From: Thermococcus sp. JdFR-02
GTDB taxonomy: Archaea > Methanobacteriota_B > Thermococci > Thermococcales > Thermococcaceae
DNA: 36,693 nt
Reading direction: 5' to 3'
NCBI GenBank assembly: GCA_002009975.1
Contig: MTLP01000038.1
Location: 1-36,693, forward strand
Shown here: positions 4,430 to 36,347 of the stretch, piece after piece
Layout of the letters: every line of letters begins with the position of its first letter
Position numbering within the stretch: the stretch's first letter is position 1
Made by a program: the position numbers and the translations under genes
The notes under the pieces: model-generated
What the model saw: the letters and a program-made list of their open reading frames with translations, nothing else
What the model was told of the DNA's origin: nothing
The model's database searches: none

Positions 4430-4564
4430 ATGGAGTTGCTGAAAGAGGATATTGTTTCTCTTCAGGAGAAGCTCAAGCGGATCAAGAAACGCATTACTGA
4501 GCTTAGACGGGAAGAAGCAAGGCTTTTGAGGCAGATAAAGCAGTCAGGGGTGAAAAGTGCATGA
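4430..4564 (+). CDS. Small coiled-coil protein (44 aa)
   Basis: Manual translation MELLKEDIVSLQEKLKRIKKRITELRREEARLLRQIKQSGVKSA; GGAGATGG upstream; ATGA overlap with the 4561 ORF. Confidence 0.6.
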   Translation: MELLKEDIVSLQEKLKRIKKRITELRREEARLLRQIKQSGVKSA

Positions 4565-16380: not shown

Positions 16381-16637
16381 CAGATCACCTCCCGATAGAC
16401 AATTTCACATCAAAATTATTACATTCATCATAATAAAGTTTGTGTAATGATTAACTAAAGAAAGTTTAAACTATTCAATGTCAGTTTTTCAACTAACTAT
16501 TTGTCAATAAGTCAATTACTCGTAGGACAAAATATATTTGAGAGTTAAACATCTTTCTAATATAATAAAACCAAAGGCTCCTATTCTTGTAATCAACCGT
16601 TACTTAAAATAGCAAAAATTCTAGGAGGTGTTAATTT

Positions 16638-17340
16638 TTGCCAAGAAAAAAAGGTAAAGGTTCTGGCTTTGAGAAAAGAGTAACAAGCAGATATAAGAAA
16701 GGTAGGTATAATGTTAAACAGAATGTGATAGGAAAACGAAATGGTAGGAAATATGAGATTGATGCAATAATAGAAAGAGGGAAAGAAAGATACCCAACAG
16801 AGATGAATGGCGGGAGACAAATTTTAACAACCTCTCAAGTGTTAGCAACCTACAAAAAGCTTAGCTACAGAAAAGGCACACCAACACTCATGGAAGAGAG
16901 ATATAGTCCAGCTGCGGATCTTATTTTATATGCATTCTTTGGCACCATGATATCCATTGTTTGGAATTATGTTCAAAACTACTCCAGTTGGACAATTGGC
17001 TTTGTTAATTGGCATATTTATTTTAGGAGCATTTCTTCTTGGAGTAACACTTTTCATCGTTGAGGAGTACCTAAAAACAATGCTATAATCCATTTAAAAT
17101 CATAATAGTAGTTTTGTACAATCTTTCCATTGAAAAGAAGAGAGCTTAGGAAAAAAGCAAAAGAAAACATCAACCAAAATACTTGAAGAACTAAAGACCA
17201 GAGAAATAACTGATGACATCAATAGAGAACACCTAACCTTTTGGACATTCCCAAGAAAGCATGTTGAGGATTATTTTGTGATTCTTGGTTACATGCTAGT
17301 GGAGTTGTTGTTCAAGAAAAATCTTATTAACTTAAAAGGT
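16638..17340 (+). pseudogene. Degenerate Mrr-like restriction endonuclease fragment fused to decayed membrane-protein gene
   Basis: RBS GGAGGTG; GFEKRV...YEIDAIIE...EMN (ExK lysine lost). The downstream hydrophobic part continues in another frame (LALLIGIFILGAFLLGVTLFIVEEYLK) and then breaks up. Confidence 0.55.
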
Positions 17341-17418
17341 ATAGTATAGTACTAAAGAATATTCGTGATTTACTCCTTCCAAGCTTAGTACTTGGAAGAA
17401 TACTGGTGGGTGATTTAA

Positions 17419-18234
17419 ATGCCAAGGGTATTTCTAGCCCCATATAGATTTGAGGTTGTGAAATTGCCCTCGAAATATAATGGAAATTTCTTGAAGTTCT
17501 TGGAAACGAAAAAAAGAAAACATTATGTCGATAACAATGATCAAACAGAATTTATTTTGGAGTCAGTTAATGTAGAGGGCAACAAAGCTTGGGGTTATAT
17601 GCAATATGGGAGGTTTGGATCAAAAAGACCAGTAGTCGATGTCAAAACTCAAACAAAAACAAAGGACATAGAAGAATACGAATCACCCTTGGATAACTAT
17701 TTTTATCTCATTGAATACAATCAAAGAACTAAGATCGGATTTATGGTTATTCAGAGGATAGGAAATATTGGTGTTAGATCTGCCTTTTCCAATGCTCTAG
17801 AACAGTGGGATGGGCATTTAAAAATTGATCCTGTAATACTGAAGCTGAATAAACTTTTGGAAAGTCCAATTATGGAAATCAAAATTCGTGTTCCAAAGAA
17901 ACCTAGGGATATAGATTCAAGATTAGACAAATTCAAGATAACAAATGAGAAGGAACTTTATGTTGAGATTTCAATCAAAGCTAGGAGAAACAAAGTTATA
18001 AAGCTAAAAGATGACATTTTGGCGGCAATAAGAAATTATGACCTGAGTAATATCGGATACATCTATGATAAAGATGAAGAAAAGAGTATTGTTGTGAAGG
18101 TTGGAGACAGCAGACGCACTATAAATCTAACAAGAGGAAAAGTTCGCACATGGGTCGAGGTCAAAAATATAAACAAAATAAAAGAAGAGGCAGAGGAAAT
18201 TTTAAAAGAGATTAAAAAGGAACCAATAAAATAA
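17419..18234 (+). CDS. Soluble hypothetical protein (basic, alpha/beta), first of two-gene cassette
   Basis: RBS GGGTGA; 271 aa open frame; 6 bp from the next gene. Confidence 0.8.
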   Translation: MPRVFLAPYRFEVVKLPSKYNGNFLKFLETKKRKHYVDNNDQTEFILESVNVEGNKAWGYMQYGRFGSKRPVVDVKTQTKTKDIEEYESPLDNYFYLIEYNQRTKIGFMVIQRIGNIGVRSAFSNALEQWDGHLKIDPVILKLNKLLESPIMEIKIRVPKKPRDIDSRLDKFKITNEKELYVEISIKARRNKVIKLKDDILAAIRNYDLSNIGYIYDKDEEKSIVVKVGDSRRTINLTRGKVRTWVEVKNINKIKEEAEEILKEIKKEPIK

Positions 18235-18240
18235 TAACTG

Positions 18241-18747
18241 GTGGTCAGAGTGTATGGTCTGATGGATATCAGGGAGATAGTGAAAGATTATTTTAGACAT
18301 ATGCGTAGTGACCTAAGGACATTCCCTTTGATTATCACTCTTATCGTTGTCCCCCTGGTCCTAGCATCTCTCTTTTATTTCCTAATGTATCCGAGCGCAA
18401 ATAAATTCTATAGCCATATAATAACAGTGTCCAGTATTTTGATTCCATTATTGCTTAACCTTTTGATGATAGTGTATTATAGTCTAGAGAAAACCAAAGA
18501 AACTGAGAAAGACAAAATAGGATTCCTAGAACATATAAATTCCACAATCTCTATGACAATATTAGTGTCTGTATTTGTATTATTTTTAGCTATAATTTTT
18601 GCTGGAAGAGAGAATACTCCTCTTTGGGCTAGATGTGCATTATTCTATCTCATTGGATTTCTTATAATCAACGTGATTATCACCCTAGTGAGGATATACA
18701 GACTTATAAGATATGAAATTTATGATGTCAAAAAATATTCAGGTTGA
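18241..18747 (+). CDS. 4-TM membrane protein, second of two-gene cassette
   Basis: Four hydrophobic helices; start may be 18250 or 18262. Confidence 0.8.
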   Translation: MVRVYGLMDIREIVKDYFRHMRSDLRTFPLIITLIVVPLVLASLFYFLMYPSANKFYSHIITVSSILIPLLLNLLMIVYYSLEKTKETEKDKIGFLEHINSTISMTILVSVFVLFLAIIFAGRENTPLWARCALFYLIGFLIINVIITLVRIYRLIRYEIYDVKKYSG

Positions 18748-18960
18748 TTATAATAATATTCCAAAGAGAGAAACAAGAATGAAGAAGAAGGTCGAACTAA
18801 CAGAGAAGTATGATATTAGAAGTATTATGCCGAGCTATAAGAACTCTCATTTCACAAGAAATTTTTGATTAAGTATAAAAATTTAGCACGACATAAACTT
18901 GTTATCAAATCAGAGGGGAGCAAATGACAGAGAAAGATAAAAATTAACTTTTATTATCTC

Positions 18961-19803
18961 ATGGTGAGAAATATGGAAACAATGTCAACATTGGAACAGT
19001 TATTGTACACAACTGTAAGAGTTAGGGCAATAATAGAAGAGGATGTTGAAAATATTGGAACTTCATTTATTTTTAATTACAATGTTGAAGACAAGAATTA
19101 TTTGTTTCTCGTAACTAATAAACATGTAGTCTCAAATGCCAGAGTTGGAGTTCTGACTTTTATAAAAGGAGAAGATGGAAAACCCAAACTTGGAGAAGCC
19201 CACTCAGTAACTATTACAAATTTTAATGAGTTTTGGATATTTGATAGAGAATACGATGTTGCAATAGCACCTCTTGCACCTGTAATAAATTACTTGCAGG
19301 AAAACAAAACTATGATATTCCTTAAAGCAATACCACGAACATTTGTTCCAGATAAAACCCAATTAAAGTCTCTTGATGCAATTGAAGAGGTTGTATTTGT
19401 TGGATATCCTGGTGGATTTTATGATGAAAGACATTTCTTACCAATAACCCGAAAAGGGATAACCGCTACACCTCCTTACATCGATTTTAATGGACAGAAA
19501 GCGTTTTTAATAGATGCCTCTGTTTTTCCAGGGTCTAGTGGAAGTCCTGTGTTTTTGTATAACCGTGGAGGATATTTTGATAAAACTAAGAAATCATTTA
19601 TTATCGGTGCAGAGAGGCTCTTGTTTTTAGGAATTCTTTCCGCAGTGTATTATATTCCAGATACTGGAGAAATTATATACGCTCCTCTCTTAAAAAAGCC
19701 AAGGGTGCAAGTACGGCAATTACTGGATCTTGGAATAGTATATAAGGCTGAGATAATAGTCAGACTAATTGAGGAGTTTTTAAAAAAGCGTGGTGAAATT
19801 TAA
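18961..19803 (+). CDS. Cytoplasmic trypsin-like serine protease
   Basis: Catalytic triad motifs VTNKHVV (H), YDVAIA (D), FPGSSGSPV (S); no signal peptide or PDZ domain. Confidence 0.88.
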   Translation: MVRNMETMSTLEQLLYTTVRVRAIIEEDVENIGTSFIFNYNVEDKNYLFLVTNKHVVSNARVGVLTFIKGEDGKPKLGEAHSVTITNFNEFWIFDREYDVAIAPLAPVINYLQENKTMIFLKAIPRTFVPDKTQLKSLDAIEEVVFVGYPGGFYDERHFLPITRKGITATPPYIDFNGQKAFLIDASVFPGSSGSPVFLYNRGGYFDKTKKSFIIGAERLLFLGILSAVYYIPDTGEIIYAPLLKKPRVQVRQLLDLGIVYKAEIIVRLIEEFLKKRGEI

Positions 19804-19975
19804 GTTATCATAACCAAACTGATGACAGAACTACTAACAACAAGGATTTATGAAAATATTTAAAATTAGTAAATTTGGATAATCAAATTACTATTATAAA
19901 GAGAAATAATTGTGGCAAAAATTTAAAAGCAGTTAAGAATACTATCTAACAGAGAAAAAAGAAGAGGGAACAAGA

Positions 19976-20698
19976 ATGACAACAGAAAGTATGATAACTT
20001 CAACTTATTCTCTTTATGATCTTTTGTCAGATAAATACTCTGATGAGCTATTTGTAGGTATATTAGACTCTATAAAACCGACTTTTTCTGCACTTCCGTA
20101 CATAAAAAGAAAACACCAATCATACAAATTCAGGGCACTAATGAGGATAAAACAAATCTTAGCAGAAAAACAAGAAAAAATCCTTCCAAAACTTTTAGAG
20201 GTTTTGCCTGTGGAGGCAAGAAAAGAGGCATATCTCCAAGCCAAGTATAACATTCTTAAAATCCTAAATGAGGAACTAAAAGATGTAATGGAAGAGCTCG
20301 ATGAGCTCATGAATATAATCAATAAACATGAACTAGAGCGTTCATTAAGAATAGACATTAAAAAACAAATAAGCATCTTAGAATTAATAAGAGACAATAT
20401 TTCTGAAGAAATACTAACGAAAGAGCTCGATGATGAAACCATCGACGCATATTTAACTATAGATCAAGCAATTTCATTGTTAATACACCTATACATGAAA
20501 ATCCTAGAAAAAGGAGTAGAATCCTTAGATTTGTCCCTCTATACTCTAATCCTGAACCTAAGACTCATGGCTATACTTCACAAGAAAGATAAAAAACACT
20601 TAGAACTGCTCAAAGAGGATATAATAGAGATAGCGCCAGAACTAACTCCAAAATCAAGTCCTGAAGAAATTGCTAAGTTATTACAAATGGTGTACTAG
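19976..20698 (+). CDS. Alpha-helical protein, probable partner/antitoxin of downstream PIN nuclease
   Basis: 240 aa helical, L/E/K/I-rich; stop is 1 nt before the PIN gene start. Confidence 0.7.
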   Translation: MTTESMITSTYSLYDLLSDKYSDELFVGILDSIKPTFSALPYIKRKHQSYKFRALMRIKQILAEKQEKILPKLLEVLPVEARKEAYLQAKYNILKILNEELKDVMEELDELMNIINKHELERSLRIDIKKQISILELIRDNISEEILTKELDDETIDAYLTIDQAISLLIHLYMKILEKGVESLDLSLYTLILNLRLMAILHKKDKKHLELLKEDIIEIAPELTPKSSPEEIAKLLQMVY

Positions 20699-20699
20699 G

Positions 20700-21398
20700 A
20701 TGCTCAATTTTGTTGATACGAATGTAGTAGTAGCACTACTCTTAGAAACTGATCCCCATCATAAAGACAGTGTTGGGTTTTTTAAAGAAATTAAAATCGA
20801 TATTCCAGAATCCACATACAGAGAAATTAGAAGAACGTTTATGACTAAATATAACACGGCATTACGAGTCCTACTGAAAGCTATAAGCAAAGCTAAAAAA
20901 GAAAACCCTTCAACTGAGGATGAGATGATAGCTCTTGTTGAAAAATTTACCTTAGAGATTGGTGCAAAGGTTGATCCATACTTAATGAATTTTTATGAAT
21001 ATCTGCTTAAGAAAGCAAAAGAACAGAACTTGCTACACTCAAAAAACATTATCAACATAACGAGATACTTCGATGATCATTTAGTAGAACTTTTATCAAA
21101 AATACAAGGATTTGGAAAACCAAACATAATTAAATTAAGCGAAGAAGATTTAGAACTTTCTAAAGAAATTTATCAGCTTGTTGGAGATAAATTTAAAGAT
21201 TTCAACGATGCAGAAATATTCTGTCAAGTAGTCTCAATCCTTATTAAAAGAAAAGAAGAAGGAAAGCTCTACACTTTTGACCAAAATTTTGCAAAAGCCG
21301 GAAGTGAAGCCATCAAAATCCTAAATCGAAAGGGATATGATGTAAATTTAGATGTAATATACTTCCCTTCTATTCTCTCTCAAAAATATCAAAGTTAG
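20700..21398 (+). CDS. PIN-domain (VapC-like) ribonuclease with large helical insertion
   Basis: FVDTNVVVA, E in YREI, DFNDAEI, LYTFDQNF. Confidence 0.85.
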   Translation: MLNFVDTNVVVALLLETDPHHKDSVGFFKEIKIDIPESTYREIRRTFMTKYNTALRVLLKAISKAKKENPSTEDEMIALVEKFTLEIGAKVDPYLMNFYEYLLKKAKEQNLLHSKNIINITRYFDDHLVELLSKIQGFGKPNIIKLSEEDLELSKEIYQLVGDKFKDFNDAEIFCQVVSILIKRKEEGKLYTFDQNFAKAGSEAIKILNRKGYDVNLDVIYFPSILSQKYQS

Positions 21399-21427
21399 GA
21401 GAAACGTTCCCTTTCATATTTGGCTTC

Positions 21428-21685
21428 CTATTTCTTCAATTCTCCAAGAATTGTTGAGAGTAATGCACCTATTAACTCTCCAATAGCTACTCCAATAAGA
21501 TATTTTATCAATAGCTCAATAGCGGAATTCACGGCCCATTCTGAATTAAATATCCCTCCTAAATATGCTAAAAGAATTCCAGACATCAACATTATTGCAC
21601 TTATTTTTTGTTGAGCTTCTTCTACTTTATTCATCGCATCTAAAAAACCCACAACAAATCCAACAAATCCTGGAAACGAGCTCAT
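21428..21685 (-). CDS. Small membrane protein
   Basis: RBS GAGGGG before ATG 21685; 2-3 hydrophobic segments. Confidence 0.65.
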   Translation of the reverse strand: MSSFPGFVGFVVGFLDAMNKVEEAQQKISAIMLMSGILLAYLGGIFNSEWAVNSAIELLIKYLIGVAIGELIGALLSTILGELKK

Positions 21686-21695
21686 ATTATCCCCT

Positions 21696-22031
21696 CTATT
21701 TCTCCCAATGCTCAAGCAATTGGTCATAGAGGGGCTTCATAACCTTAAATGGCCCTTCTAAGCTTAGAGTTGTCTTCCCATAAAGCTCAATAATACCCTT
21801 TTTCTTCAAAAGTCCCTTTTCCTTAAACTTAATTCCTTGAAGATCCTCTAACTTCCAAGAAACCAAGTCAATCCTCCTCAAAAGCCCTCTCTTGTTAAAC
21901 AAAATAAAACGCTTATTCGTCAAAACAACCTTCCAACGCTTACCTGCATAATCAATGAACCTATCGCTAACAAAACGAACCTCCTCACCAGGCATAAGAT
22001 AATCATACAGCTCAGCCACTGTCATCACCAC
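21696..22031 (-). CDS. Prokaryotic PH-domain protein (bPH/YokE-like)
   Basis: LMPGEEV...VVLTNKRFILF.KRGLL...LEDLQGIKFKEKGLL. Confidence 0.8.
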   Translation of the reverse strand: MVMTVAELYDYLMPGEEVRFVSDRFIDYAGKRWKVVLTNKRFILFNKRGLLRRIDLVSWKLEDLQGIKFKEKGLLKKKGIIELYGKTTLSLEGPFKVMKPLYDQLLEHWEK

Positions 22032-22135
22032 TTAAGATATGAATTTGTTATATAAATAAATTTGCATAACTATTATTCAGAATAGGCGATAAAGTTTTAT
22101 TCACAAGAATAAATTTCAGCTCTGGTGATGAAATC

Positions 22136-22354
22136 ATGAAGTTGTTTAAGGTTCATGTGTCGAATTATGATGAAGAGGAGGACAGCAAAGCATTTGCAAC
22201 ATTTATAGTGCTGGCAAGAGATGAAGGAAAGGCCGAGCTATTAGTCAAAGAATACATCAAAAAAGAAGAGTTGCTAAAAGGAGATTTGGAGATATTAGAC
22301 GTTGAAGAAGTGCCGATAGATGAGGAGCAAGTACTAGGAATCATTCTTGATTAA
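22136..22354 (+). CDS. Small acidic hypothetical protein
   Basis: RBS GGTGA; upstream AAAGTTTTAT TATA-like box. Confidence 0.75.
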   Translation: MKLFKVHVSNYDEEEDSKAFATFIVLARDEGKAELLVKEYIKKEELLKGDLEILDVEEVPIDEEQVLGIILD

Positions 22355-22381
22355 GAAGCTTTATATAATTAATGATTTGCC

Positions 22382-22848
22382 CTAGTCTTCTTCTAAAGCT
22401 TTTAAAACTTTTTCGATATTTTCGTTAAGTTTTTCCAACTCACTAATAGCGCTGTCTACTCCCTCAAAGATTGTTAGTCCAAAAGCCATAGCATTAAACC
22501 AGGCATTGTATAGTACCAACTCAGTGTATACTATATCAAGAAGCCCATTTGTTTTTGAGGATAACTCAAAGAATAGAGTAGATCTTCTATTAACATTACT
22601 TCATAAACTCTAACAAGAAATGGTGAAACAAGAACGGCTTCTTTAGCCTTACCGATTTTTACGCGATACAAATGGAGGATATTCTCTCCTATTCGTCTTT
22701 GATTTAGTTGGAGTTCATTTTTTAGAGCATTAATCAGTTTCTTTTGAGTCTCTCTCTTTGAATGCCATACTTGAAGATATATTCCAATTAAGGCAGAAAT
22801 AGCACCAGCTAATAATGTAAGGAAAAAGGTAAGTAAAATACTAATCAT
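22382..22848 (-). pseudogene. Frameshifted N-terminal-TM helical protein
   Basis: The ORF track frame stops at 22531, but a shifted frame from about 22580 continues LFFELSSKTNGLLDIVYTELVLYNAWF...EKVLKALEED* to 22382. RBS GGAGGGAG. Confidence 0.6.
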
Positions 22849-22910
22849 GAACTCTCCCTCCTAAGGACTTTCTCTATTTTTAGACCTTTTACAGAGTCAC
22901 TGAATGACTT

Positions 22911-24182
22911 TTAAGGAGACATTGTTCGAATTGTCTCTATCCATCTTTCTAGATGTCCTACATATCTTTTTGCAATTGTTTTACTTTTTTCTGAGGCTTT
23001 TATTATATCGACAACTTTTTCTAATATTTTAAGCTCTTCTTGAATATCCACTTTACATTCCCTGTTTCTTTCTTTTAAAAACTCCAACTTTAGTTGATCT
23101 TTTAGCTCATTAATTTTATTCCCTAGTTCTTTGTATCTTTTTTTATCATCATCTGATAATTGAGAGATTCTAAACCCATTGGGAGTCATTCCCTTTTTTC
23201 TAAGCTCTGAATACTCCTTGTCAAGTTGGAATAATGCTCTTATAATATCTAAAACATCTTTTGTTTTGTTGTATCCTAACTGTGCTCCATATTTTACTAG
23301 GATAGGTACTGCAGCTTCTATGGTAAACTCTCGTTTCAAAAAGGGAATATATATTTTGATATATTCCCTACTCACCCAACTTCGGGAGTATCTAACATCC
23401 CCTCCAGACACTCCATGAGATATTCCATATGGTTGAAGAAGTATATCAAAGAAATTTGCATACATTAAAATCACTTTCTCTTTATATTTCTTAATTAGAC
23501 TTACAAATTCATAGTATGCTTGAAGATACTCTTCTGAAATAGATTTTTTATCGAAATCTGTTATCCACAAGCCGAGTATATTTCCAGGAAACTCTTTAAT
23601 ATATTCACTTACTTTCATTTCATCAAGTTGTAAGAGAACATCTTCTTCCAAAATACTTAAAATAGGGAAAATTTCTTTATTGCCAGCAAGTTTACTAGTA
23701 TATTTTGCCAGTTGTATATTGGTTTCCATCCACGGATCATCAAACTCTTCAATAGGGAAATAAGGGGGGATAATCCATCTTGGTTGGAGATTATTATCTT
23801 TTGAGAAATATTGGAGTATCAATGTCTGCTTTGACGGAAGGAAAATAGTATTTTGAAAGGTTATTACATTCCGTACAAATACTTTAGCAAAATCCTCAGT
23901 AAACGTTTCTGGATATATATCCTCTTCTGCAGGTAGACCATATCTTTCTTTTAATTGTTGTATAGATATTCTCTCTTCCTCTTCATTAAACTCTTGGCGA
24001 AATCTATATGTGGAGGGATCAATAGCAAAGGGTTTTTTTATTTTTGTTAAAAATTGAGATAAACTCTTAAACTTCAATAATGCTGTTGAAGCTTCTATCA
24101 ATATACCAGAATAATATTCTTTTCCTTGAATTAGTGCATTTTTATCTTTATCATTATACTTAATTAGAGTTATATCAACCAT
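22911..24182 (-). CDS. Hypothetical protein, probable TIM-barrel (TGT/beta-protein/sce7725-like)
   Basis: Alternating beta/alpha with motifs FAIDPSTYRF, IIPPYF, LGLWITDF, ISHGVSGG, IYIPFL, GHL; overlaps upstream nuclease gene. Fold is inferred. Confidence 0.6.
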   Translation of the reverse strand: MVDITLIKYNDKDKNALIQGKEYYSGILIEASTALLKFKSLSQFLTKIKKPFAIDPSTYRFRQEFNEEEERISIQQLKERYGLPAEEDIYPETFTEDFAKVFVRNVITFQNTIFLPSKQTLILQYFSKDNNLQPRWIIPPYFPIEEFDDPWMETNIQLAKYTSKLAGNKEIFPILSILEEDVLLQLDEMKVSEYIKEFPGNILGLWITDFDKKSISEEYLQAYYEFVSLIKKYKEKVILMYANFFDILLQPYGISHGVSGGDVRYSRSWVSREYIKIYIPFLKREFTIEAAVPILVKYGAQLGYNKTKDVLDIIRALFQLDKEYSELRKKGMTPNGFRISQLSDDDKKRYKELGNKINELKDQLKLEFLKERNRECKVDIQEELKILEKVVDIIKASEKSKTIAKRYVGHLERWIETIRTMSP

Positions 24183-24532
24183 GAAACATCACCAGGTTTT
24201 AATACTATTTCGGCATGTTTCTTATTGACTGCAATAAGACCCACTCCATAGTATTCAAAAATTGTGAAATCTAACTTGTTTACGATATCTTGTGGAAGAG
24301 CAACATAAGATTCGTCAAAAAAATACGAATTTAGATATGCTTGAAATAATGCTTTTTCCCAATCTCGCATTTTGACTTCAACTGCTGCTTTTTTTGTATC
24401 ATTTATAAAAAGCAAATCTACTCTCTTTCCAGTTTTTAGTGTCCTAAAGATAGGAGCTTCTTTTTCCACATTATGATACCCCAATTCTAAGAACAAATTG
24501 ATAATTGGCCTGTATAATCGCTTCTCTCTCAT
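24170..24532 (-). CDS. Small PD-(D/E)XK nuclease-fold protein (MmcB/sce7726-like)
   Basis: MREKRL...RVDLL...AVEVK.RDWEKALFQAY...FDESYVALP...GVGLI. Confidence 0.8.
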   Translation of the reverse strand: MREKRLYRPIINLFLELGYHNVEKEAPIFRTLKTGKRVDLLFINDTKKAAVEVKMRDWEKALFQAYLNSYFFDESYVALPQDIVNKLDFTIFEYYGVGLIAVNKKHAEIVLKPGDVSWLI

Positions 24533-24554
24533 GATATATAATTGTTGCAGAAAT

Positions 24555-24574
24555 TTTATAAATATTTTTATAAA
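24555..24574. promoter_or_regulatory. Back-to-back TATA boxes of divergent promoters
   Basis: TTTATAAA at 24555-24562 and 24567-24574 in the 76-bp gap between divergent genes. Confidence 0.6.
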
Positions 24575-24608
24575 TCCACCTCAATAGAAAAAAATTGAGG
24601 GGAAAAAG

Positions 24609-25172
24609 ATGAGAATAGGAAACCTCGAATTAATGATTTTATTGTTATATAGTAGCAAGGACAATAAGATAACTGGTCGGTTACGGTTAGCTAAATTATT
24701 ATTCATAGCTAGCAGAGAAATTTCTTCTCCTAATATAGAGATTGAATCTTCAGAGTTTATTCCCTATAAACAAGGTCCATATCCCTTAGATTTTAATGAT
24801 ATTATTGAGGTAGCCCAAGATAATAGATTACTCGAAGTAGAGGGCAATCAGTTTACCTTAACACCAGAAGGAATTAAGATTGTTGAAGAATTGTTCCTAT
24901 CCAATGAAGAAGGTAGGGAGCTAGTTAACCAAGTGAAACAGATAGTGGAGAGATTTAAAGAGGCCTCAGATGATGCAATTCTTGCATATGTTTATCTAAA
25001 ATATCCTGGATTTGCTACAAAATCTGAAATAAAGAGACTGGTATTCCTAAGAATTAGAGAAGGACTACAGTCATTTATTAGAATGGCAAGAATGGTGGGT
25101 ATAACTGAAGAAGAAATCAATCAATCGCTTGAAAATGCCAGAATGCGTACTCTACAAAAATTATATGGGTGA
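24609..25172 (+). CDS. Panacea/SocA-like (DUF4065) wHTH antitoxin
   Basis: ITGRLRLAKLLF...FIPYKQGPY...LTPEG...YVYLKYP. Confidence 0.72.
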   Translation: MRIGNLELMILLLYSSKDNKITGRLRLAKLLFIASREISSPNIEIESSEFIPYKQGPYPLDFNDIIEVAQDNRLLEVEGNQFTLTPEGIKIVEELFLSNEEGRELVNQVKQIVERFKEASDDAILAYVYLKYPGFATKSEIKRLVFLRIREGLQSFIRMARMVGITEEEINQSLENARMRTLQKLYG

Positions 25173-25178
25173 GTATAC

Positions 25179-25670
25179 TTGACCCTCAGAATATTAATAG
25201 ACACAAATGTAATAATATCGGCCTTATTTTTTAATAGGAAGCCTCTAGAACTTCTTGAAAAATGCATCCAGAGTAAATTGGGGATATATCCAATTAAAAT
25301 AGAATATATAATTCCCCAATATGTTCGAGATGAAGTACATGAGGTTATATCTGAGAAATTTCAGGGGAATTATACAAATGAAAAAAGAATATTACTAGCT
25401 AGCATTTTTGAAAGTGCGGAAAATATAACCTATGAGGAACTTAAAGAACATCTCTCTGAAGCTATAGAAATGGTTGGGTCTATTGATGAAAAGGATGTTC
25501 CCGTAGTCGCAGCAGTATTAGCTTCAAAACCTGATTACCTAATAACAGGCAACAAGAAACACTTCTCAAAACTAGAAGATGGAAACAATATAAAAATAGC
25601 ATCTCCTACTGAATTTTTAGATGAGGTTGAAGAAATATCCAAAAGGTTTGAAATGGATATTTACATTTAG
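25179..25670 (+). CDS. PIN-domain toxin (PIN_3/TIGR00305-like)
   Basis: ILIDTNVIISALF...E..EV...DEKDVPVVAA...DYLITGNKKHF...SPTEFL. Confidence 0.88.
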   Translation: MTLRILIDTNVIISALFFNRKPLELLEKCIQSKLGIYPIKIEYIIPQYVRDEVHEVISEKFQGNYTNEKRILLASIFESAENITYEELKEHLSEAIEMVGSIDEKDVPVVAAVLASKPDYLITGNKKHFSKLEDGNNIKIASPTEFLDEVEEISKRFEMDIYI

Positions 25671-25833
25671 CTTGATATTAAACACAAGATTCTTATCGCT
25701 TTTAAGCATTATTAACAATCAACCTCACTAAGCGACAAAAAGTAACTATCTTATACATATTTTTGTATAACTTATCTCGCAACCCATCAATATAAAAACT
25801 AGTAATAAATTAGTTCCCTAGGTCGGTGTGGCA

Positions 25834-25955
25834 ATGAATGAAGGAGAAAATACTTCTAATGAGACCAAAGATTTTGAGAGTATCATTTGCGAAAGAATAA
25901 AAGAAAATGAAGAATTCTTGAATAAAAATGCAAAAGATGTTTACGAAGAAGTAAT
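25834..25955 (+). pseudogene. 5' remnant of a gene truncated by the convergent HEPN gene
   Basis: GGTCGGTG upstream; MNEGENTSNETKDFESIICERIKENEEFLNKNAKDVYEEVI is protein-like, then the frame runs into the antisense of the HEPN gene. Confidence 0.45.
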
Positions 25956-27257
25956 CAAACCTCCTCCTATTAATTGTTGTAATTTTTCATTTGCTCTGTT
26001 CTCTAACATTGAATTGTCAATTAAACTTATAAAGTCCTCTTTTTCTTTAGGAATTTGTAAGAATACTATGATGGATTTTCTAAGATATTCAACAATCTTA
26101 TCCAGTATCTCCTTTGCCTTACGTGGTTCTTCAATACATGAAGGAGACCCATGAACAAAACTACTTCTTATTTCGTAACCATCTTTGATAATGTTATAAA
26201 CTTTTATCGGCTGTTTATCAAAAAACTTCATGACCTTGGCAACTCTTTGTGCAAGTCTATGAGACAGCTCTTGTCTTTCTTCAGCCTTTAAATATAATGC
26301 CTCAAGTCCCATTATAGCATAAGCAATTTTGTTTTCTATAGTCTCTGGTTTAGAAATAGCATCTTGATATCTCAATATCGCAATTCCTATTGGATGTGAT
26401 GACAATGGTCTTCCAGTTTTCTCTTCAACTGGCAACTTGTCTTTTATCTCTTTCACAAAATTTGGGAGAGATTCTTTGTCATCCTCGGTAAGAGAGTACT
26501 TGTATGTGATAGTCCAATGAGGTGGATAAGAAACACTACTACGTCCTAAAATTGAGTTAGGTTCCCATTTAATCTGTTTTACTCCTACTGATCCTAGTTT
26601 ATATAGGCGAAGAGACAGCAGTATCTTTTCAAGTTCTGGATAAATAGGAGGTTTAAACTTTATTCGTTTATGTATTTCAAGAATTGCGGAGGGAGTTACA
26701 AATAATCTAGATACAATCGATAGTGGAGAGACTTCGTATTCTATATCTTTTGGTCTAGGTCTTCTTATGAGTATACCTTTCTCTAGTTCTATCTGATCTG
26801 TTCCCATATGTACTCCACTTAGCCATACTGTAATATTCCATTCAACAGGATTACCCTCTAACTCATTTACAAAAGTAACAATTAAGCTAGTGATTGCCTT
26901 AGAATCCAAGTTATCAGTTAAAAATTCATATACTATTTTGTAAACAAACTGAAAAAGCCAAGATTCTGCTTGATCCTCACTAACTCCATATATCTCTGAT
27001 ATTGCTGTTACACACTTCCTAAATTGAGGAGCATTTTTTAATGAATCAACTAATTTATAAATATCCCAAGAATCCCATTCTTCCTTTGTAACAACTTTAT
27101 GAGACCATGAGAATCTCTTTTTTTCATATTCAAACTCTTTGACCTCATATCTTATATAGTCTCTTTTTTCCTTTCGAATTTTTTCTTCTTTTTTCCAAGT
27201 ATCACATGTGCTAGTGACTAGATCTACTAGGTCCTGAAGGAAGATTGCTAACTTCAC
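25941..27257 (-). CDS. ApeA-like HEPN ribonuclease
   Basis: C-terminal HEPN: MGLEALY...ELSHRLAQR...YEIRSSFVHG (Rx4H). RBS GAGGAGGG before GTG. Confidence 0.85.
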   Translation of the reverse strand: MKLAIFLQDLVDLVTSTCDTWKKEEKIRKEKRDYIRYEVKEFEYEKKRFSWSHKVVTKEEWDSWDIYKLVDSLKNAPQFRKCVTAISEIYGVSEDQAESWLFQFVYKIVYEFLTDNLDSKAITSLIVTFVNELEGNPVEWNITVWLSGVHMGTDQIELEKGILIRRPRPKDIEYEVSPLSIVSRLFVTPSAILEIHKRIKFKPPIYPELEKILLSLRLYKLGSVGVKQIKWEPNSILGRSSVSYPPHWTITYKYSLTEDDKESLPNFVKEIKDKLPVEEKTGRPLSSHPIGIAILRYQDAISKPETIENKIAYAIMGLEALYLKAEERQELSHRLAQRVAKVMKFFDKQPIKVYNIIKDGYEIRSSFVHGSPSCIEEPRKAKEILDKIVEYLRKSIIVFLQIPKEKEDFISLIDNSMLENRANEKLQQLIGGGLITSS

Positions 27258-27356
27258 ATATTTCCCTCCTCAACTCATTAATCACCTTCTTTCAATCTCA
27301 AATTTCTCAAACTTGCAGCTCATAGATGGTTCTTAATAACTATACGACTCAAGTAT

Positions 27357-28352
27357 CTACATTCTAATAACAATCTCTCTTCTGCGTCCTTTTCTCCTAA
27401 TGCTGCCTTCAAGGATTAAAACTCGCGCACCTAATCTCTGGAGCTTTCTCATGTAATTATCGAGATCCACGTTAGCTCCAACATCAAGGACTACTGCAAT
27501 AACTTCATCAAAATAGTCCACATAGTCCATAACTTGTCCTACAAGACGCTGAAGCTTACTTCTGCTTTCAGCAATTTTAAGCTCAATGCCAACTTCGTTG
27601 CTAATAGCAATGTCAATCTTCTGATCTCCTACAGGTACTTGCCTCCTCACATTACTCCCCAAGCGAGCTCTTAAGAACTGGTACAGCTGCTTTTCAAAAT
27701 CCTCCTCATCTCTAACAGTTTCTGGTCTAAAATCAGCGAGAATGTCAAAGATATCAATCTCCCTTTCAACTTCTTCTTCAAATTCATATTCTTCCTCTTC
27801 AAGAGCTTCCTCTTCCAAAGGTTCTTCAACAGAGATGGTTTCTATCTCTTCAGCTTCCTCTCCAAATATTTCAATTTTGTATCTGTTCAACTCTTCTTGT
27901 TTCCTCTTTTTGAATTCCTCAAGTTTTGCAAAAGCAGAATCTGCCCATCTTTCTAAACTTTCAATGATATTCTTGTAACGCAGTTTATAACGTCTTCCAA
28001 TGTCTTTAACATCATCTAAATCAAGGTGCGAAGCCATTACATCAACAAGTTCTTCCTTGTTGCGAATCTTATATCTCTTCTTTTCTCCATTCACAGTTAC
28101 AACACGATAAGTAGGAATGCTCTTGGCAGCGCATATACTTTCTAACTGCTTCATCTTAAGTTGAGCCAAGATTTCTTTCTTAGCTTCAAACTCACGCCTT
28201 CTATATTCAGAATTGACCGAATCTTCTATCTTCTTAATTTCCATTCTAATTTCGAGGGCTTTCTTTTGATATTTTGCCTCTTTTGCAACTCTATCAGCAG
28301 CTTTCTTTGCGGCCTCCCCAACCTTCTTAAGAGTATCGAAGAGTCCCATCAT
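27357..28352 (-). CDS. Coiled-coil/SAP-like N-terminus + C-terminal PD-(D/E)XK nuclease
   Basis: RBS GGAGGG; EEDFEKQLYQFL...KIDIAI...GIELK...LVGQVMDY; acidic linker. Confidence 0.8.
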   Translation of the reverse strand: MMGLFDTLKKVGEAAKKAADRVAKEAKYQKKALEIRMEIKKIEDSVNSEYRRREFEAKKEILAQLKMKQLESICAAKSIPTYRVVTVNGEKKRYKIRNKEELVDVMASHLDLDDVKDIGRRYKLRYKNIIESLERWADSAFAKLEEFKKRKQEELNRYKIEIFGEEAEEIETISVEEPLEEEALEEEEYEFEEEVEREIDIFDILADFRPETVRDEEDFEKQLYQFLRARLGSNVRRQVPVGDQKIDIAISNEVGIELKIAESRSKLQRLVGQVMDYVDYFDEVIAVVLDVGANVDLDNYMRKLQRLGARVLILEGSIRRKGRRREIVIRM

Positions 28353-28590
28353 AAACCCTCCAAGGTTAATATTTAACAAAGAATTATTACAACAAATAAA
28401 CGTTAATTACGTAATATTTGTTACTTTAATGTATAAGAAGATTTCGCTATTCCAGCTGAAAAAGCCTAAAATTCGGGATATTATATCACAAAGATTTTAT
28501 ACAACAGTCGCTCATTAAAAAATGTTAGGATTCATAACAATAAATAAGAAGAACTTTAATGCTAAAATCAGCTTTGGGGGCGGGCGGGCC

Positions 28591-32395: not shown

Positions 32396-32791
32396 ATGAA
32401 AGAAGCCAAAGAACCACTGGCAAAGTTTCATGCACAGGTGTTATATAATGGTAGGATAAGTATCCCCGAAAATACTAGATTAAGATATGGTATTGAGAAG
32501 GGGGACTATGTAGAAATTATAATCAGGAAAGTAGGACTTAATAATGGACCAATCCTTGGAAGGGGGCATTTTGTTGCTAGGGTCTCAAATAAGGGGTTAA
32601 TCACAATCCCCAAAGGATTAAGATCCGAACTAAACATCAAGGAAAAGGATGTTGTTGAGATAGTTTTAATAGATTATTTTAAAATCACAGCTCTCCTCGG
32701 TAACAAATCCAAACGCCTCTCCAAAATCATCAAGAAGGGCTATGAGATTTTGGATGAAGAGTCTGAAAAAGAGCTTCTTATTTGGCATTAG
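32396..32791 (+). CDS. Tandem AbrB/SpoVT DNA-binding protein
   Basis: EPLAKFHAQVLYNGRISIPENTR..GIEKGD / SNKGLITIPKGLRSELNIKEKDVVEI. Confidence 0.88.
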   Translation: MKEAKEPLAKFHAQVLYNGRISIPENTRLRYGIEKGDYVEIIIRKVGLNNGPILGRGHFVARVSNKGLITIPKGLRSELNIKEKDVVEIVLIDYFKITALLGNKSKRLSKIIKKGYEILDEESEKELLIWH

Positions 32792-32816
32792 GGCTCCCTT
32801 TTCTTTTTCGTAGTTA

Positions 32817-32904
32817 TGTTCTATTTACAGAACAATAAATCCCATTAATTTAACAAAACATTTATATATTCTTGCAACTTAGTTGTAAATAGCAACTGAG
32901 TTGT
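32817..32904 (+). promoter_or_regulatory. Promoter of replication operon with palindromic operators
   Basis: TGTTCT-N6-AGAACA (32817-32834); TATA box TTTATATA (32861-32868); CAACTTAGTTG (32875-32885) and CAACTGAGTTG (32893-32903). Confidence 0.7.
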
Positions 32905-32918
32905 TAGAGGTGTTAATT

Positions 32919-33206
32919 ATGAATACAAACATACTCGCATACTATCAAGCACGAGTTATGAATGATGGGTATAGAATAACAATACCTTACACAACAAGAG
33001 AAAAGTACAACATAAGAGAGGGTGATTATGTAACTGTCAAGATAAAGAAACAACAAGAGGCAATTTTCACAGCAAAAGTATCATCCAAGGGGCTTATAGC
33101 AATCCCACAAAAAATCGTGAAAAAACTTGCCATTCTCCCAAATGACGTAATAGATGTCTCTCTTCTCGAATGTTACCACCCCCCAACGGTGATCCTAAAT
33201 GAGTGA
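32919..33206 (+). CDS. Tandem AbrB/SpoVT DNA-binding protein
   Basis: RBS GAGGTG; YRITIPYTTREKYNIREGDYV / SSKGLIAIPQKI..LAILPND. Confidence 0.85.
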   Translation: MNTNILAYYQARVMNDGYRITIPYTTREKYNIREGDYVTVKIKKQQEAIFTAKVSSKGLIAIPQKIVKKLAILPNDVIDVSLLECYHPPTVILNE

Positions 33207-33585
33207 AAATATCTCTCAAATTATTTCACTCCTTGAAAAGTATGGTATAACTGAGGAGGATTGGAACGGTTTGTATGCTACTCTTCTTCAGCTTGGCATA
33301 AAAGACAAAGCCGAAATCACAAGAGCAATTTACAACTACCTCATAGCAAAATACCCACAACACGTTGCTTTGGGTGTTCTAACAATCATCAGAGTCAAAT
33401 ACTTCAACGAACTCTTCGACAAAGCCTACTTCTTCAACGGTTATCACCTGAGCAAAACTGCACTCCTCGTTTTTGACGAGCTCACAAAGCCAAAACAAGA
33501 GAAAAAGATTCCCCCAAGCGAAATCCAGCCAATTGAGCCAGACCCAAGCACGATAGCATACTGGCTCAAGGAGGTGAAAACATGA
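33199..33585 (+). CDS. Hypothetical helical protein coupled to MCM
   Basis: RBS GGTGA; overlaps both neighbours (ATGA with MCM). Confidence 0.75.
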   Translation: MSENISQIISLLEKYGITEEDWNGLYATLLQLGIKDKAEITRAIYNYLIAKYPQHVALGVLTIIRVKYFNELFDKAYFFNGYHLSKTALLVFDELTKPKQEKKIPPSEIQPIEPDPSTIAYWLKEVKT

Positions 33586-36347
33586 CAGAAACACTTGAAA
33601 AAGTTAGAGAAGCCGCAAGCATGCTCAGAGACAAACTCATTGTCGAAATGCTCAAGCTCATCAAACAAATGGACGACGAAGGCTTAGACAAAATCAACCC
33701 ACAAGCACTAAGCCCAATGCTAAGAGCATGGATCAAAGGTCACTACGGCATAGTCCCAAACACCATCACAAAGGACCTACTCAAAACATACATCGAAGTA
33801 CTTGAAAATTATGGGATGTTCGTTCGGGATACGAACATTGACGAACAAACCGTTCGTGGTGAATTAACAGAGAAAAATAACGAACATCAAGTGTTCGGAG
33901 CGTTCGTATATCGTTCTTTGAAAAAGCAACTTGGTGACGAGAAATTTGAAACATTGCTAAAGAGCATCAAAGAAACATATGGCTTGCCTAGGCCTGTACA
34001 TGCAAATACATTGTTGGTAATGTTAGACATCATGGAAAACGACAGGATTGAGGTAATTCCAATCAGCCTTATTGAAAAGAGGCTCAAAGAGGATGCAGGT
34101 TTCACTAAGAGTATGATAGATAGAATGAGATGGGATTTCTTTGGAAATGGAAATGTTGCAAAGGCTCTTCAGGCTGTTCTGTTTGATGCTGTTGGTATTG
34201 TGAATGGGGAGAAGGCGTTCAAGTTGAAGGATTCTGTTGTTAAGTTCATTAAGGCTAAGGTTCTTGAGCTTTTAGGCTATGAGCAGGAAGCTGAGGAAAT
34301 GCTTGATTACACGAACAATGCTAAGGAATTCCTGAGGAACTTCAGGAAGGATGGGGAGGCAGTTTACCTTGAAAAGATCAAGGACATTGTTCTTGGCGAG
34401 AAGGTTGATTACTTCTATATTGACTACTTGGACTTGGCAAAGTATGATCCTAGGTTGGCAAGGCGTCTCTTTGACGAGCCGGAGTTTGTTCTTGGAGCTT
34501 TTGAGAATGCAGTAATGGAGCTTCAGGAAGAGTTGTTCGAGGAAATTTCGTCAGAGAATCCAGAGTTGTTTGATGAGGAGTTCAAGCCGGTGTTCCTTGA
34601 GGTTCATGTTGGTAATTTCCCACATGTTATTAGACCTCGTGATGTTAGGACTGATTTTGCTGAGAAGTTCGTGGCTGTTGAGGGGATTATTACGTCAGCT
34701 TCGAAGGTTGTTCCGTTCTTTGAGATTGCTACATATGTGTGCAAGCATTGTAGTAAGGAGATTGGTTTGTTCAATAGGCCAACAAGAATACCTGCTAAAC
34801 CACCAAGCAAGTGTCCTGATTGTGATGCCAAGGGTTCGTTTGAGCTTGATGTTAGAAAGTCAAAGAAGGTTGAGATTCAGCATTTTATTGTTAGAGATGC
34901 TCCTGAGATGCTGAATGTTGGTGAGAATGCTAAGGAGCTTGAAGCATATTTGCTCGGTAAAATGGCTGGTGCTGTTGATGTTGGTGATAAGGTAATCTTG
35001 TATGGTATTCTTAGAGTAAAAGAAAGGCTCAGTAAAAAGATTGCTGAGACTGATTACGTTCTTGAAGTCATTCATGTGGAACAGTTGAACAGGGGTATTC
35101 AGCTTGAATTGAGCAAGAAGGACGTTCAAGAGGTTCTTAAGCTCGGTGAGATGTTTGGTGAGGACTTGCCAGATGCCGTTGCACGTTCTATTGCTCCGTG
35201 GATCAGGGGTTATGAGGAAGTCAAGAAGGCGTTGGCGTTGGCTGTTGTTTCTGCTGAGGGTTTGTGGGATAAGAGGACGACGATTCATGTTTTGTTGGCT
35301 GGTGATCCTGGTGTGGGTAAGTCAAGGTTGGCGTTGGATTTGGAGAATGTTGCCCCAAAGTTTCTTTTAGCTGAGGGTGGCGGTTCCTCAAGAGCTGGCT
35401 TAACAGCAAGCTTTGAAAAAGATGAATTGACGGGCAAGTTCACTGTTCGTGGTGGCTTGTTAGTCCTTGGTAGTGATGGAATTGTACTTGTCGATGAGTT
35501 CAGCAATTTGAAGAGAGAGGATATCAATGCGTTGAAGACGTGTATGGAGCATGGTTTTGTTGCTCCTGCAAAGGCTGGAATTTCAAATGTCAAGTTGAGA
35601 GCTACTGCAACTATTGTTGGGACTGCAAATCCAAAAGCTGGCAAAATTGATAGGACAAGGCTTTTGATTGACCAGTTGGATATCCCATTCCCTGTGCTAA
35701 CGAGATTTGACTTGATTTTTGCGTTCTTTGATGAGCCAGATGAAGAGAAGGACGAGGAGATTGGTTGGAGCATTCTAAGTGAGGTTAAGCGCAAGAAGGG
35801 TGAACCTCCAAAGAGGATTATACCTGCGGAGCTTTTGAAGAAGTTGTTTGCCTATGCAAGGTTTAATGTATTTCCAGAGGTTACTGAAGAGGCTCAACGG
35901 CTCATGGTTTCTGAGTTTGTTAAGTTGAGAAAGAAGACAAGCACAAATGGAAATTCTGTCAGCAGACGCATTATGGACGCTCTTGTTAGGCTTAGTTATG
36001 CGCATGCGAAGCTTAGACTTGCTGACAAGGTTGAGAAGGTTGATGTTGAGGAGGCTGTGAGGCTGATTTGGAAGAGTTTGGAGTATGTAGCCTATGATCC
36101 TGAGACTGGTGAGATTGATGTAAGCATTCTCCAAGTTGGAGTTCCTTCCAGAGAAAGGGAGAAGTTCGAGCTGTTTATTAGAGTCATGGAAAATCTTGCA
36201 AGGAAATACGGGAATATCCGAATTGACATTATCAAGAATGTTCTGAATGAAAAGGGGCTAAGTGACGATGAGATTGAAAGATTCTTGGAACGTGGTGAGA
36301 AATTGGGCTATTTGAGACAATTAGGGGATTTTGTCGAATGGTCATAA
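33582..36347 (+). CDS. mcm: MCM replicative helicase with ~240-aa N-terminal extension
   Basis: Zn finger CKHC..CPDC, OB-fold motifs, Walker A GDPGVGKS, AGLTA, Walker B LVDEF, ANP, arginine finger LTRFDL, AHAKLRL, C-terminal wH. Confidence 0.95.
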   Translation: MTETLEKVREAASMLRDKLIVEMLKLIKQMDDEGLDKINPQALSPMLRAWIKGHYGIVPNTITKDLLKTYIEVLENYGMFVRDTNIDEQTVRGELTEKNNEHQVFGAFVYRSLKKQLGDEKFETLLKSIKETYGLPRPVHANTLLVMLDIMENDRIEVIPISLIEKRLKEDAGFTKSMIDRMRWDFFGNGNVAKALQAVLFDAVGIVNGEKAFKLKDSVVKFIKAKVLELLGYEQEAEEMLDYTNNAKEFLRNFRKDGEAVYLEKIKDIVLGEKVDYFYIDYLDLAKYDPRLARRLFDEPEFVLGAFENAVMELQEELFEEISSENPELFDEEFKPVFLEVHVGNFPHVIRPRDVRTDFAEKFVAVEGIITSASKVVPFFEIATYVCKHCSKEIGLFNRPTRIPAKPPSKCPDCDAKGSFELDVRKSKKVEIQHFIVRDAPEMLNVGENAKELEAYLLGKMAGAVDVGDKVILYGILRVKERLSKKIAETDYVLEVIHVEQLNRGIQLELSKKDVQEVLKLGEMFGEDLPDAVARSIAPWIRGYEEVKKALALAVVSAEGLWDKRTTIHVLLAGDPGVGKSRLALDLENVAPKFLLAEGGGSSRAGLTASFEKDELTGKFTVRGGLLVLGSDGIVLVDEFSNLKREDINALKTCMEHGFVAPAKAGISNVKLRATATIVGTANPKAGKIDRTRLLIDQLDIPFPVLTRFDLIFAFFDEPDEEKDEEIGWSILSEVKRKKGEPPKRIIPAELLKKLFAYARFNVFPEVTEEAQRLMVSEFVKLRKKTSTNGNSVSRRIMDALVRLSYAHAKLRLADKVEKVDVEEAVRLIWKSLEYVAYDPETGEIDVSILQVGVPSREREKFELFIRVMENLARKYGNIRIDIIKNVLNEKGLSDDEIERFLERGEKLGYLRQLGDFVEWS
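33816..33917. repeat. Iteron-like CGAAC/GTTCG cluster inside mcm, candidate replication origin
   Basis: Eight perfect cores at 33818, 33822, 33832, 33842, 33852, 33881, 33893 and 33902, plus GTTCT at 33913; includes ATGTTCGT-N7-ACGAACAT inverted repeat. Confidence 0.7.

Follow-up and report, generated by a model that had tools for sequence, protein, structure and literature searches.

In bacteriophage lambda the replication origin is contained in gene O, which codes for its initiator, and ori mutations can spare the function of protein O, as stated in the available part of PMC4488673. In the SaPI islands, a winged helix carried by the self-loading helicase Rep recognises iterons of five or six nucleotides, 6-12 in number and divided between the two sides of a central region (PMC9371898), and, in the available portions of two reports, SaPI Rep/PriRep act with no separate loader and with a specificity that differs between islands (PMC9371898; bioRxiv 10.64898/2026.10.17.759575). 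Here we describe an array of pentamers located in the 5′ part of an mcm gene of Thermococcus sp. JdFR-02, on contig MTLP01000038.1 (the window, i.e., the whole stretch of 36,693 bp that was analysed, corresponds to an entire contig, C19, of a 2.36-Mb Thermococcales genome, G000); the array is probably, though with a good deal of reservation, an iteron origin placed in the gene of its own initiator-helicase and bound by the winged helix of that same MCM.

For Thermococcales plasmids of the pT26-2 and pTN2 families, origins were predicted from skew minima and repeats, near the Rep or MCM gene and with an AbrB-like gene adjacent; in the available portions of these reports the predictions are mostly intergenic and no conserved consensus is given (PMC2926602, PMC6972569). 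Replication modules are described as exchangeable among such elements (PMC6972569, PMC12934983). The 2026 preprint PMC12934983, as far as its available text goes, finds no Orc1/Cdc6 and no origin recognition box (ORB) in Thermococcales viruses, describes the MCM extension as a winged helix-turn-helix resembling the DNA-recognition domain of Orc1/Cdc6, hypothesises that this N-terminal domain of the viral MCMs recognises origins, naming no cis site, and poses explicitly the question of how archaeal elements encoding an MCM find their origins without Orc1/Cdc6. Arrays such as the one presented below were not described in the literature searched, which left out supplements and the original pTN3 paper.

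The pentamer array and its conservation

The features of the mcm gene that concern the array are the following; the structural model was obtained with AlphaFold2 (AF2).

33582 to 36347, + strand: mcm, 921 amino acids (aa); about 245 aa of N-terminal extension precede the canonical MCM_N, OB, P-loop and lid domains
33816 to 33917, no strand assigned: pentamer array (module), with the same layout in 12 modules from 7 loci
33818 to 33856: left half of the array, 5 CGAAC/GTTCG cores
33857 to 33880: centre of the array, a 24-nt purine-rich spacer
33881 to 33906: right half of the array, 3 cores, followed by a degenerate CGTTC at 33911 to 33915
33818(-), 33822(-), 33832(+), 33842(+), 33852(-), 33881(+), 33893(-), 33902(-): starts of the CGAAC/GTTCG cores
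33813 to 33917, + strand: linker peptide encoded by the array, aa 78-112, a low-confidence region of the AF2 model

CGAAC/GTTCG occurs at 36 sites in the window, and 8 of them fall within 33818-33906, so that a short motif with fixed spacing is packed into a compact region of 89 bp, as in iteron origins; the whole array is about 105 bp long. A preliminary description, made from the sequence alone, had reported eight cores in about 90 bp and in both orientations, four of them exactly 10 bp apart (33822, 33832, 33842 and 33852), an 8-bp inverted repeat and an A/T-rich spacer flanked by the cores; the recount returned all of these, with the 8-bp repeat at 33816-33823/33831-33838 and 14 A/T out of 19 in a 19-nt slice of the central spacer that is offset by 2 nt. 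A 10-bp inverted repeat is also present (33815-33824/33879-33888), and the first core of the window array is doubled and displaced by one base relative to the layout of its relatives. A chance cluster was ruled out by simulation of the window: a maximum of 3 CGAAC/GTTCG sites per 90 nt was reached in 500 first-order Markov simulations, as compared to the 8 observed, and when any pentamer was accepted, the highest count in 100 simulations was 7 (in 5 of the 100). Counting from the mcm start at 33582, two cores are in codon phase 0, one in phase 1 and five in phase 2; since the cores occupy all three phases and both strands, a repeated amino-acid motif cannot generate the array, and this origin of the pattern was discarded, also in view of the non-conservative peptide changes detailed below.

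Pfam analysis of the MCM identified MCM_N (residues 247-323), OB (353-479), P-loop (528-733) and lid (750-832) domains. The protein is 71.7% identical to the MCM of pTN3 (record KF527230.1) over residues 1-920, including the extension of about 240 aa, and it is preceded by an ORF05-like gene; by these similarities it belongs to the pTN3-type MCMs, which combine the N-terminal extension with an upstream ORF05-like gene.

33199 to 33585, + strand: ORF05-like gene, 128 aa, homologue of TNaP3-05 of pTN3, overlapping the mcm start

The ORF05 product of the window has 47% identity with its pTN3 homologue and is shorter, 128 vs 164 aa, the window copy being devoid of the second module described hereafter. 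The pTN3-type extension was found in 5 of 99 Thermococcales genomes, counting that of the window, in 2 metagenome contigs and, by a protein database search, in only 3 further MCMs. In every locus for which DNA was available a module is present within mcm at about nt 230 of the gene, and a second one, located 431 nt upstream inside the ORF05 homologue, occurs in all loci but the window; it corresponds to 4519-4606 of the pTN3 record (L008) and was also seen in L010-L013 and L015. A gap-free alignment was obtained for the 12 modules of the 7 loci; their 7 cores occupy fixed columns, in the orientation - + + - / + - - around the 24-nt purine-rich spacer, and the modules end with a conserved TAYCGTTC that codes for Y-R-S. 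Each module uses a single core, either CGAAC, TGAAC, GGAAC or CGATC, distributed as follows:

Window: CGAAC in mcm
G027/pTN3: CGAAC in ORF05, TGAAC in mcm
G042, G023 and L015: GGAAC in ORF05, TGAAC in mcm
G020: CGATC in ORF05, GGAAC in mcm
L016: CGATC in mcm

Seven modules have 7 of 7 cores in exact register and the L016 module has 6 of 7; in the TGAAC modules, 5 of 7 cores are in the fixed columns, one is shifted by a base and one reads GTTCT. The pTN3 record contains 7 TGAAC/GTTCA sites in 4077-4175. A pattern built on the right half of the module occurred nine times in the 99 Thermococcales genomes, in 5 of them and always at the ORF05 or mcm module positions, and its reversed control did not occur in the same set. 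The viral contig collection yielded no confirmed loci and no pattern matches, and a scan of wider genome contigs gave only 3 bacterial matches, at chance level, in a search that missed known Thermococcales loci and from which near genomes were possibly excluded.

The preliminary description had proposed that the motif be looked for at synonymous positions of related mcm genes. The comparison agreed with this expectation: the layout is kept beyond any coding need, the cores change in concert and the peptide is not conserved. The reading frame is identical in all modules, and the encoded residues change non-conservatively with the core (VR/VP/VQ/DR, TN/GN/LN/TI and FG/FP/FK/IG), the peptide following the DNA and not the reverse. 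When the window module was compared with the pTN3-type ORF05 module, which has the same core in a different gene, 31 of 35 core positions were identical vs 31 of 61 spacer positions (Fisher p = 1.3e-4); in three of the other four same-type pairs, cores were identical at 34-35 of 35 positions vs 45-49 of 61 for the spacers (p = 0.002-0.003; for example 35/35 vs 49/61, p = 0.003), and in the fourth at 35/35 vs 53/61 (p = 0.022). A function of the array at the DNA level is strongly supported, and such a pattern would be expected of a DNA element inserted in a linker that tolerates change. Residues 78-117 form the lowest block of the AF2 model, with a predicted local distance difference test score (pLDDT) below 50, the array peptide itself being modelled at 30-41.

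In the elements that have two modules, the ORF05 array has the same layout as the mcm array and always a different core. The ORF05 module was exchanged independently of any nearby protein region, and the N-domain of the ORF05 protein is nearly identical between elements with different ORF05 cores; the ORF05 protein was therefore rejected as the reader of its own module, as its N-domain does not vary with the core. A tblastn search for a paralogous winged helix in the window and in five related stretches gave none at E < 1.

The winged-helix domain and related MCM families

The segment of the extension that follows the array-encoded linker contains two further features:

33933 to 34331, + strand: winged-helix domain, aa 118-250, from the AF2 model and structural matches
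34107 to 34142, + strand: putative recognition helix, aa 176-187, with D180 at 34119-34121 and W184 at 34131-34133

Modelling of the complete extension gave a poor result (mean pLDDT 58.8), for which Foldseek returned no meaningful match; the winged-helix domain was then modelled alone. The model of residues 118-250 reached a mean pLDDT of 87.2 and a predicted template modelling score (pTM) of 0.80, with a helix-helix-turn-helix arrangement and a beta hairpin. Its best structural matches are winged-helix proteins, including SSV1 F-93, MarR/SarX types, AF1382 and the winged-helix domains of Orc1, among them yeast and human ORC structures, with Foldseek probabilities up to 0.95 and VIA Z values of 7.9-6.4; a sequence profile searched against the PDB gave nothing below E = 1.9. 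A modelled winged helix and the MCM domains are thus found in a single open reading frame (ORF), the strength of the structural matches being moderate.

The identity of residues 180 and 184 tracks the core type of the mcm array in 10 of 10 MCMs, the core type of three of them being inferred from the peptide only:

D180 and W184: CGAAC or CGATC cores, 3 of 3 (window, P0003, L016)
A or K at 180 and K at 184: GGAAC cores, 2 of 2 (G020, P0002)
Y180 and S184: TGAAC cores, 5 of 5

On this basis, residues 180 and 184 are predicted to be specificity residues. Between G020 and G023, identity across ORF05 and mcm is 96-100% and drops in two islands only, to about 60% in the ORF05 module and to 55-73% at mcm nt ~210-570, an interval that coincides exactly with module plus winged helix. 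This pair amounts to a natural swap experiment. The array is a portable cassette, found also in the upstream gene of the relatives and co-varying with the adjacent winged helix, an aspect that was absent from the preliminary description.

A genome-wide scan identified 31 dense pentamer arrays, defined by at least 7 pentamer copies in 100 nt. Arrays are also present in the 5′ part of two other MCM genes of the mobile-element type, with nine copies of TGCAA on contig C7 and eight of TGAAA on contig C9. The C7 array, on the minus strand, is located at 26712-26810 in the N-terminal extension of the mcm, and further upstream on the same contig (30445-30510 and 31790-31915) there are a partial duplicate and a paralogous TGGAA-type module of the same layout. 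The C9 array lies at 83648-83742 (ORF nt 66-160), in the gene of a third MCM that likewise has an N-terminal extension; an array of six GTGAGA copies is located just upstream, and the skew switch at C9 is weak (0.51 to 0.56).

The MCMs of this second family are 31% identical to the window type, and the C7-type extension was found in 9 of the 99 genomes. Six of 10 loci of the family contain in-ORF arrays, with other cores (TGCAA, TGGAA, TATCCAA, TTCCCAA, TGTCCCAA and TGAAA). A third-position switch in composition accompanies all six array loci (for example 0.46 to 0.75 and 0.49 to 0.79) and is absent in the four array-less loci, and in the 38-kb C7 stretch the G+T skew minimum lies at C7:26446, 266-364 nt past the array. 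Two loci of this family, L037 (G058) and L038 (G052), have flanks that are 93-98% identical on either side of a module that is only 47-70% identical, and their winged helices differ by three residues. The MCM bodies of these two loci are only ~45% identical, and the extension, comprising array and winged helix, recombines as a unit onto different MCM bodies.

Strand composition and the host element

The leading strand is usually G+T-rich, a rule applied to Thermococcales plasmids in the available text of PMC2926602, and a skew minimum is therefore taken to mark an origin. Over the whole window, the cumulative G+T skew is lowest at 34010 and highest at 9967. The preliminary description had anticipated an extremum between 33.8 and 34.1 kb, and had noticed a flip from 43/60 A+C at 33661-33720 to 42/60 G+T at 35221-35280; the minimum falls within the expected range and both counts are exact.

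33980 to 34112, no strand assigned: support interval of the strand-composition change point (2-log-likelihood support), mcm nt 399-531

At third codon positions the change point is at mcm nt 489, with a keto fraction of 0.36 before and 0.72 after (likelihood-ratio test, 112.7), and its support lies 65-195 nt beyond the array. Skew at fourfold sites passes from -0.31 to +0.38, the flip being largest at third and fourfold positions; the skew of second positions is near zero, indicating that the bias is mutational and does not derive from protein composition. Amino-acid composition was thus rejected as the cause of the skew, also because the C9 MCM, which lacks the pTN3-type extension, reaches only +0.10 at fourfold sites. 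Among the 936 ORFs of at least 300 aa in the genome, the mean fourfold skew is -0.027 (standard deviation 0.124) and only 2 reach +0.38; two large ORFs upstream of the array, 29754 and 30991, rank with the four lowest values. Since all genes here are on one strand, a transcription-coupled bias cannot explain opposite signs. The minimum is located 125-201 nt past the MCM array in each of five related stretches; L032 (G027) and the pTN3 record gave identical values and were counted once. The other extremum is consistent with a terminus, and the resulting arms stand in a ratio of about 1:2 in the window element as in pTN3.

A junction between two mcm donors had been indicated beforehand as a finding that would speak against an origin. 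A recent, one-off recombination event was rejected as the cause of the skew, as the flip is common to all relatives; older mosaic boundaries, some of which are nearby, remain a caveat.

The body of mcm also contains three long antisense ORFs (142, 169 and 119 aa) at 34860-36134 on the minus strand, with a similar situation in the relatives; they can most likely be ascribed to the G+T richness of third positions, through which stop codons are lost from the opposite strand. Upstream of the ORF05-like gene, two regulator-type genes are found:

32396 to 33206, + strand: two AbrB/MazE-like (SpoVT-AbrB) genes, at 32396-32791 and 32901-33206 (PF04014, E 1.6e-13 and 5.9e-09)

The two genes are separated by an A/T-rich intergenic region, and they are candidate regulators of the replication module.

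As regards the rest of the element, what the window has in common with pTN3 is limited to ORF05 and MCM, apart from weak matches to integrase and AbrB. The window has traits of the pT26-2 family, namely three T26-6p Pfam domains (E 2e-52 to 6e-41), a HerA-like ATPase and an SSV-type integrase fragment; the host is, judging from this gene content and with 1 of 7 core genes checked by name, a pT26-2-family element and not a pTN3-like virus. The replication module has moved between element families, in agreement with the exchangeability described in PMC6972569 and PMC12934983. Among 20 window ORFs scanned, no Cdc6-type Pfam match was obtained.

1361 to 2221, + strand: C-terminal fragment of an SSV-type integrase (PF16795, E 1.6e-58)
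1367 to 1411: attachment site (att) copy, 45 nt, left border of the integrated element, identical to C1:362-406

The tRNA-Val gene whose 3′ half is identical to att lies at the start of contig C1. The integrase fragment and the att copy together indicate that the element is integrated, spanning at least 35.7 kb; its right end continues on C1, where a short ORF reads into att and may be the N-terminal fragment of the integrase. The region 16000-28000 has a G+C content of 0.31-0.34, as compared to 0.36-0.44 elsewhere, with genes on both strands and a weak restriction-endonuclease-like match at 27357-28379 (PF18741, E 3e-4), and may represent a separate insertion within the element. Repeats make up both contig ends (36593-36693 and 1-118) and explain the assembly break: the terminal ~125 nt align with the end of contig C11 (94%), and C16 contains a 96% match to the initial 118 nt. 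Matching contigs were found in four public runs, none of them an RNA run, with no differing letters; the contigs of the four runs branch at 36593, and no sign of expression, of an excised form or of the origin emerged from them.

Proposed mechanism, rival explanations and known systems

Taken together, the data support an origin located in mcm, as the preliminary description had proposed, and origin function is judged rather probable, short of confident. The pentamers would be binding sites (iterons) for the winged helix encoded about 100 nt downstream in the same mcm, and these sites together would most likely constitute the replication origin of the element. In such a scheme the MCM would be a self-loading initiator-helicase, whose N-terminal winged helices would dock on the pentamers, with inverted pairs on either side of the 24-nt purine-rich spacer; hexamers would assemble at the array, and forks would depart, presumably in both directions, from within the 5′ part of the gene. 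The array would be tolerated in an ORF because it encodes a flexible interdomain linker.

Several observations weigh against this proposal. The composition change point is sharp only in the window, its support being broad in the relatives, where the best estimates are mcm nt 861-864 (G020, G023 and G027) and nt -197 (G042), closer to the boundary between the extension and the canonical MCM than to the array; with mosaic boundaries nearby, part of the skew could reflect history and not fork direction. In line with a mosaic structure, the L037 and L038 extensions are 92-98% identical and their MCM bodies only ~45% identical (after ~nt 700). The assignment of the winged helix is of moderate strength (Foldseek E not below 0.17, VIA Z below 8, a "common" level on the scale of that tool), and the co-variation is based on four core types and on a small number of independent lineages. 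The ORF05 modules differ in core from the MCM module of their own element, and no matching reader was found for them. The spacer is A/T-rich in the window and only purine-rich, not clearly A/T-rich, in the relatives, and the array comparison did not identify a clear unwinding element. Finally, the element is integrated.

A further reading, put forward tentatively, is that array and winged helix form an exchangeable specificity cassette that defines replicon classes, the extra modules, whose core differs from that of the MCM module of their own element, being functional sites read by the MCMs of other co-resident elements. These modules could act as decoys, titrating the initiator of a competitor, or as piracy sites allowing replication by a relative; the modules concerned would be those in ORF05 of the pTN3-like elements and those upstream in the C7 element.

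A rather unlikely alternative is that the array is an operator or a transcriptional roadblock that autoregulates mcm, bound by the winged helix or by another regulator such as the AbrB-like proteins, the origin being elsewhere, e.g., at 32792-32900. Iteron-binding initiators commonly autoregulate, which is in favor of an operator, as are the two AbrB-like genes with their A/T-rich intergenic region, 0.7-1.4 kb upstream. Published origin predictions for the pT26-2 family, in the available part of PMC6972569, are likewise mostly intergenic; however, the skew minimum and its support interval at 33980-34112 exclude 32.8 kb, and 7-8 sites in two inverted half-arrays around a spacer are a layout of the origin type, comparable to that of the SaPI ori as given in the available text of PMC9371898. 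Moreover, where the MCM has passed to an unrelated element backbone, the array has moved with it.

It is improbable that the array serves as a centromere-like partition site, a copy-control (handcuffing) site or a packaging site and not as a replication start. Such sites are also short-repeat arrays that co-evolve with a binding protein, and the occurrence of several arrays per element recalls the iteron control loci of plasmids; however, the 20 window ORFs scanned included no ParA/ParB-like gene beside the array, whose linkage is with the winged helix of the MCM and not with capsid or packaging genes, and the skew switch is located at the array.

The two remaining explanations are poorly supported. 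That the array only reflects a linker peptide that is repetitive or evolves fast, its DNA having no function of its own, is very improbable: a single reading frame and the conserved Y-R-S end in all modules would agree with it, but not the presence of cores in three codon phases and on both strands, the simultaneous switch of all 7 cores of a module, which forces non-conservative replacements, the better conservation of cores than of spacers, the low pLDDT (30-41) of the array peptide, or the fact that the ORF05 protein of the window works without a module. Equally remote are hairpins formed by inverted cores in mRNA or single-stranded DNA to regulate translation or stability: stems of 5-9 bp are predicted and concerted core changes would preserve the complementarity of the arms, but the fold energy is unremarkable (z = -1.85, 11 of 200 shuffles folding at least as well), the only Rfam row (E 0.64) is located elsewhere and is not a match, independent hairpins need not share one sequence, core 4 of the TGAAC-type modules is GTTCT, which breaks its pair, and stems of 5-6 bp would be weak at the usual growth temperatures of Thermococcales.

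To the question of how MCM-encoding archaeal elements find their origins, the locus contributes a conserved candidate cis site, two predicted specificity residues (180 and 184) and natural swap variants. If the array is an origin bound by its own MCM, it would be the first defined origin for this widespread type of replicon and would provide an archaeal MCM acting as its own initiator, as well as a rational basis for new compatible shuttle vectors in Thermococcus. The array is a clear case of dual coding, in which selection at the DNA level overrides the protein sequence. Should the cassette and decoy reading be true, an arms race at the level of origins would be written inside protein-coding genes, and the core classes (CGAAC, TGAAC, GGAAC, CGATC and others) would define replicon classes among the MCM elements of Thermococcales.

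Compared with the origins predicted for the pT26-2 and pTN2 families, the window presents a conserved in-ORF cassette with defined core classes. Archaeal ORB/mini-ORB origins would resemble it in being read by a winged helix, that of Orc1/Cdc6, but the repeats of the window are pentamers and not ORB-like elements, and its cores are presumably unlike the ORB consensus. In the core origins of SV40 large T antigen and papillomavirus E1, pentanucleotides in inverted pairs are recognised by an origin-binding domain that is part of the same protein as a hexameric helicase, which assembles at the site; these systems differ from the MCM in helicase superfamily and in binding fold, and their origins are non-coding. 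The likeness with lambda would consist in origin repeats placed inside the coding sequence of their own initiator and bound by a domain of that protein; lambda, however, has four 19-bp direct iterons and a separate A/T-rich segment, and its protein O recruits the host helicase via P, whereas the window has 7-8 pentamers in both orientations, a putative initiator that is itself a helicase (MCM) and a winged helix located downstream of the array. With SaPI, the window shares short repeats distributed half on each side of a centre in opposite orientations, and a predicted winged helix borne by the helicase. SaPIs have bacterial hosts, a C-terminal winged helix and iterons that immediately follow the rep ORF; in the window the array is within the ORF, the winged helix is N-terminal and the motor is an archaeal MCM, and the relatives have in addition a second module of a different type in the neighboring gene. 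By analogy, the array system would combine the ori-in-O design of lambda with the self-loading helicase design of the SaPI type.

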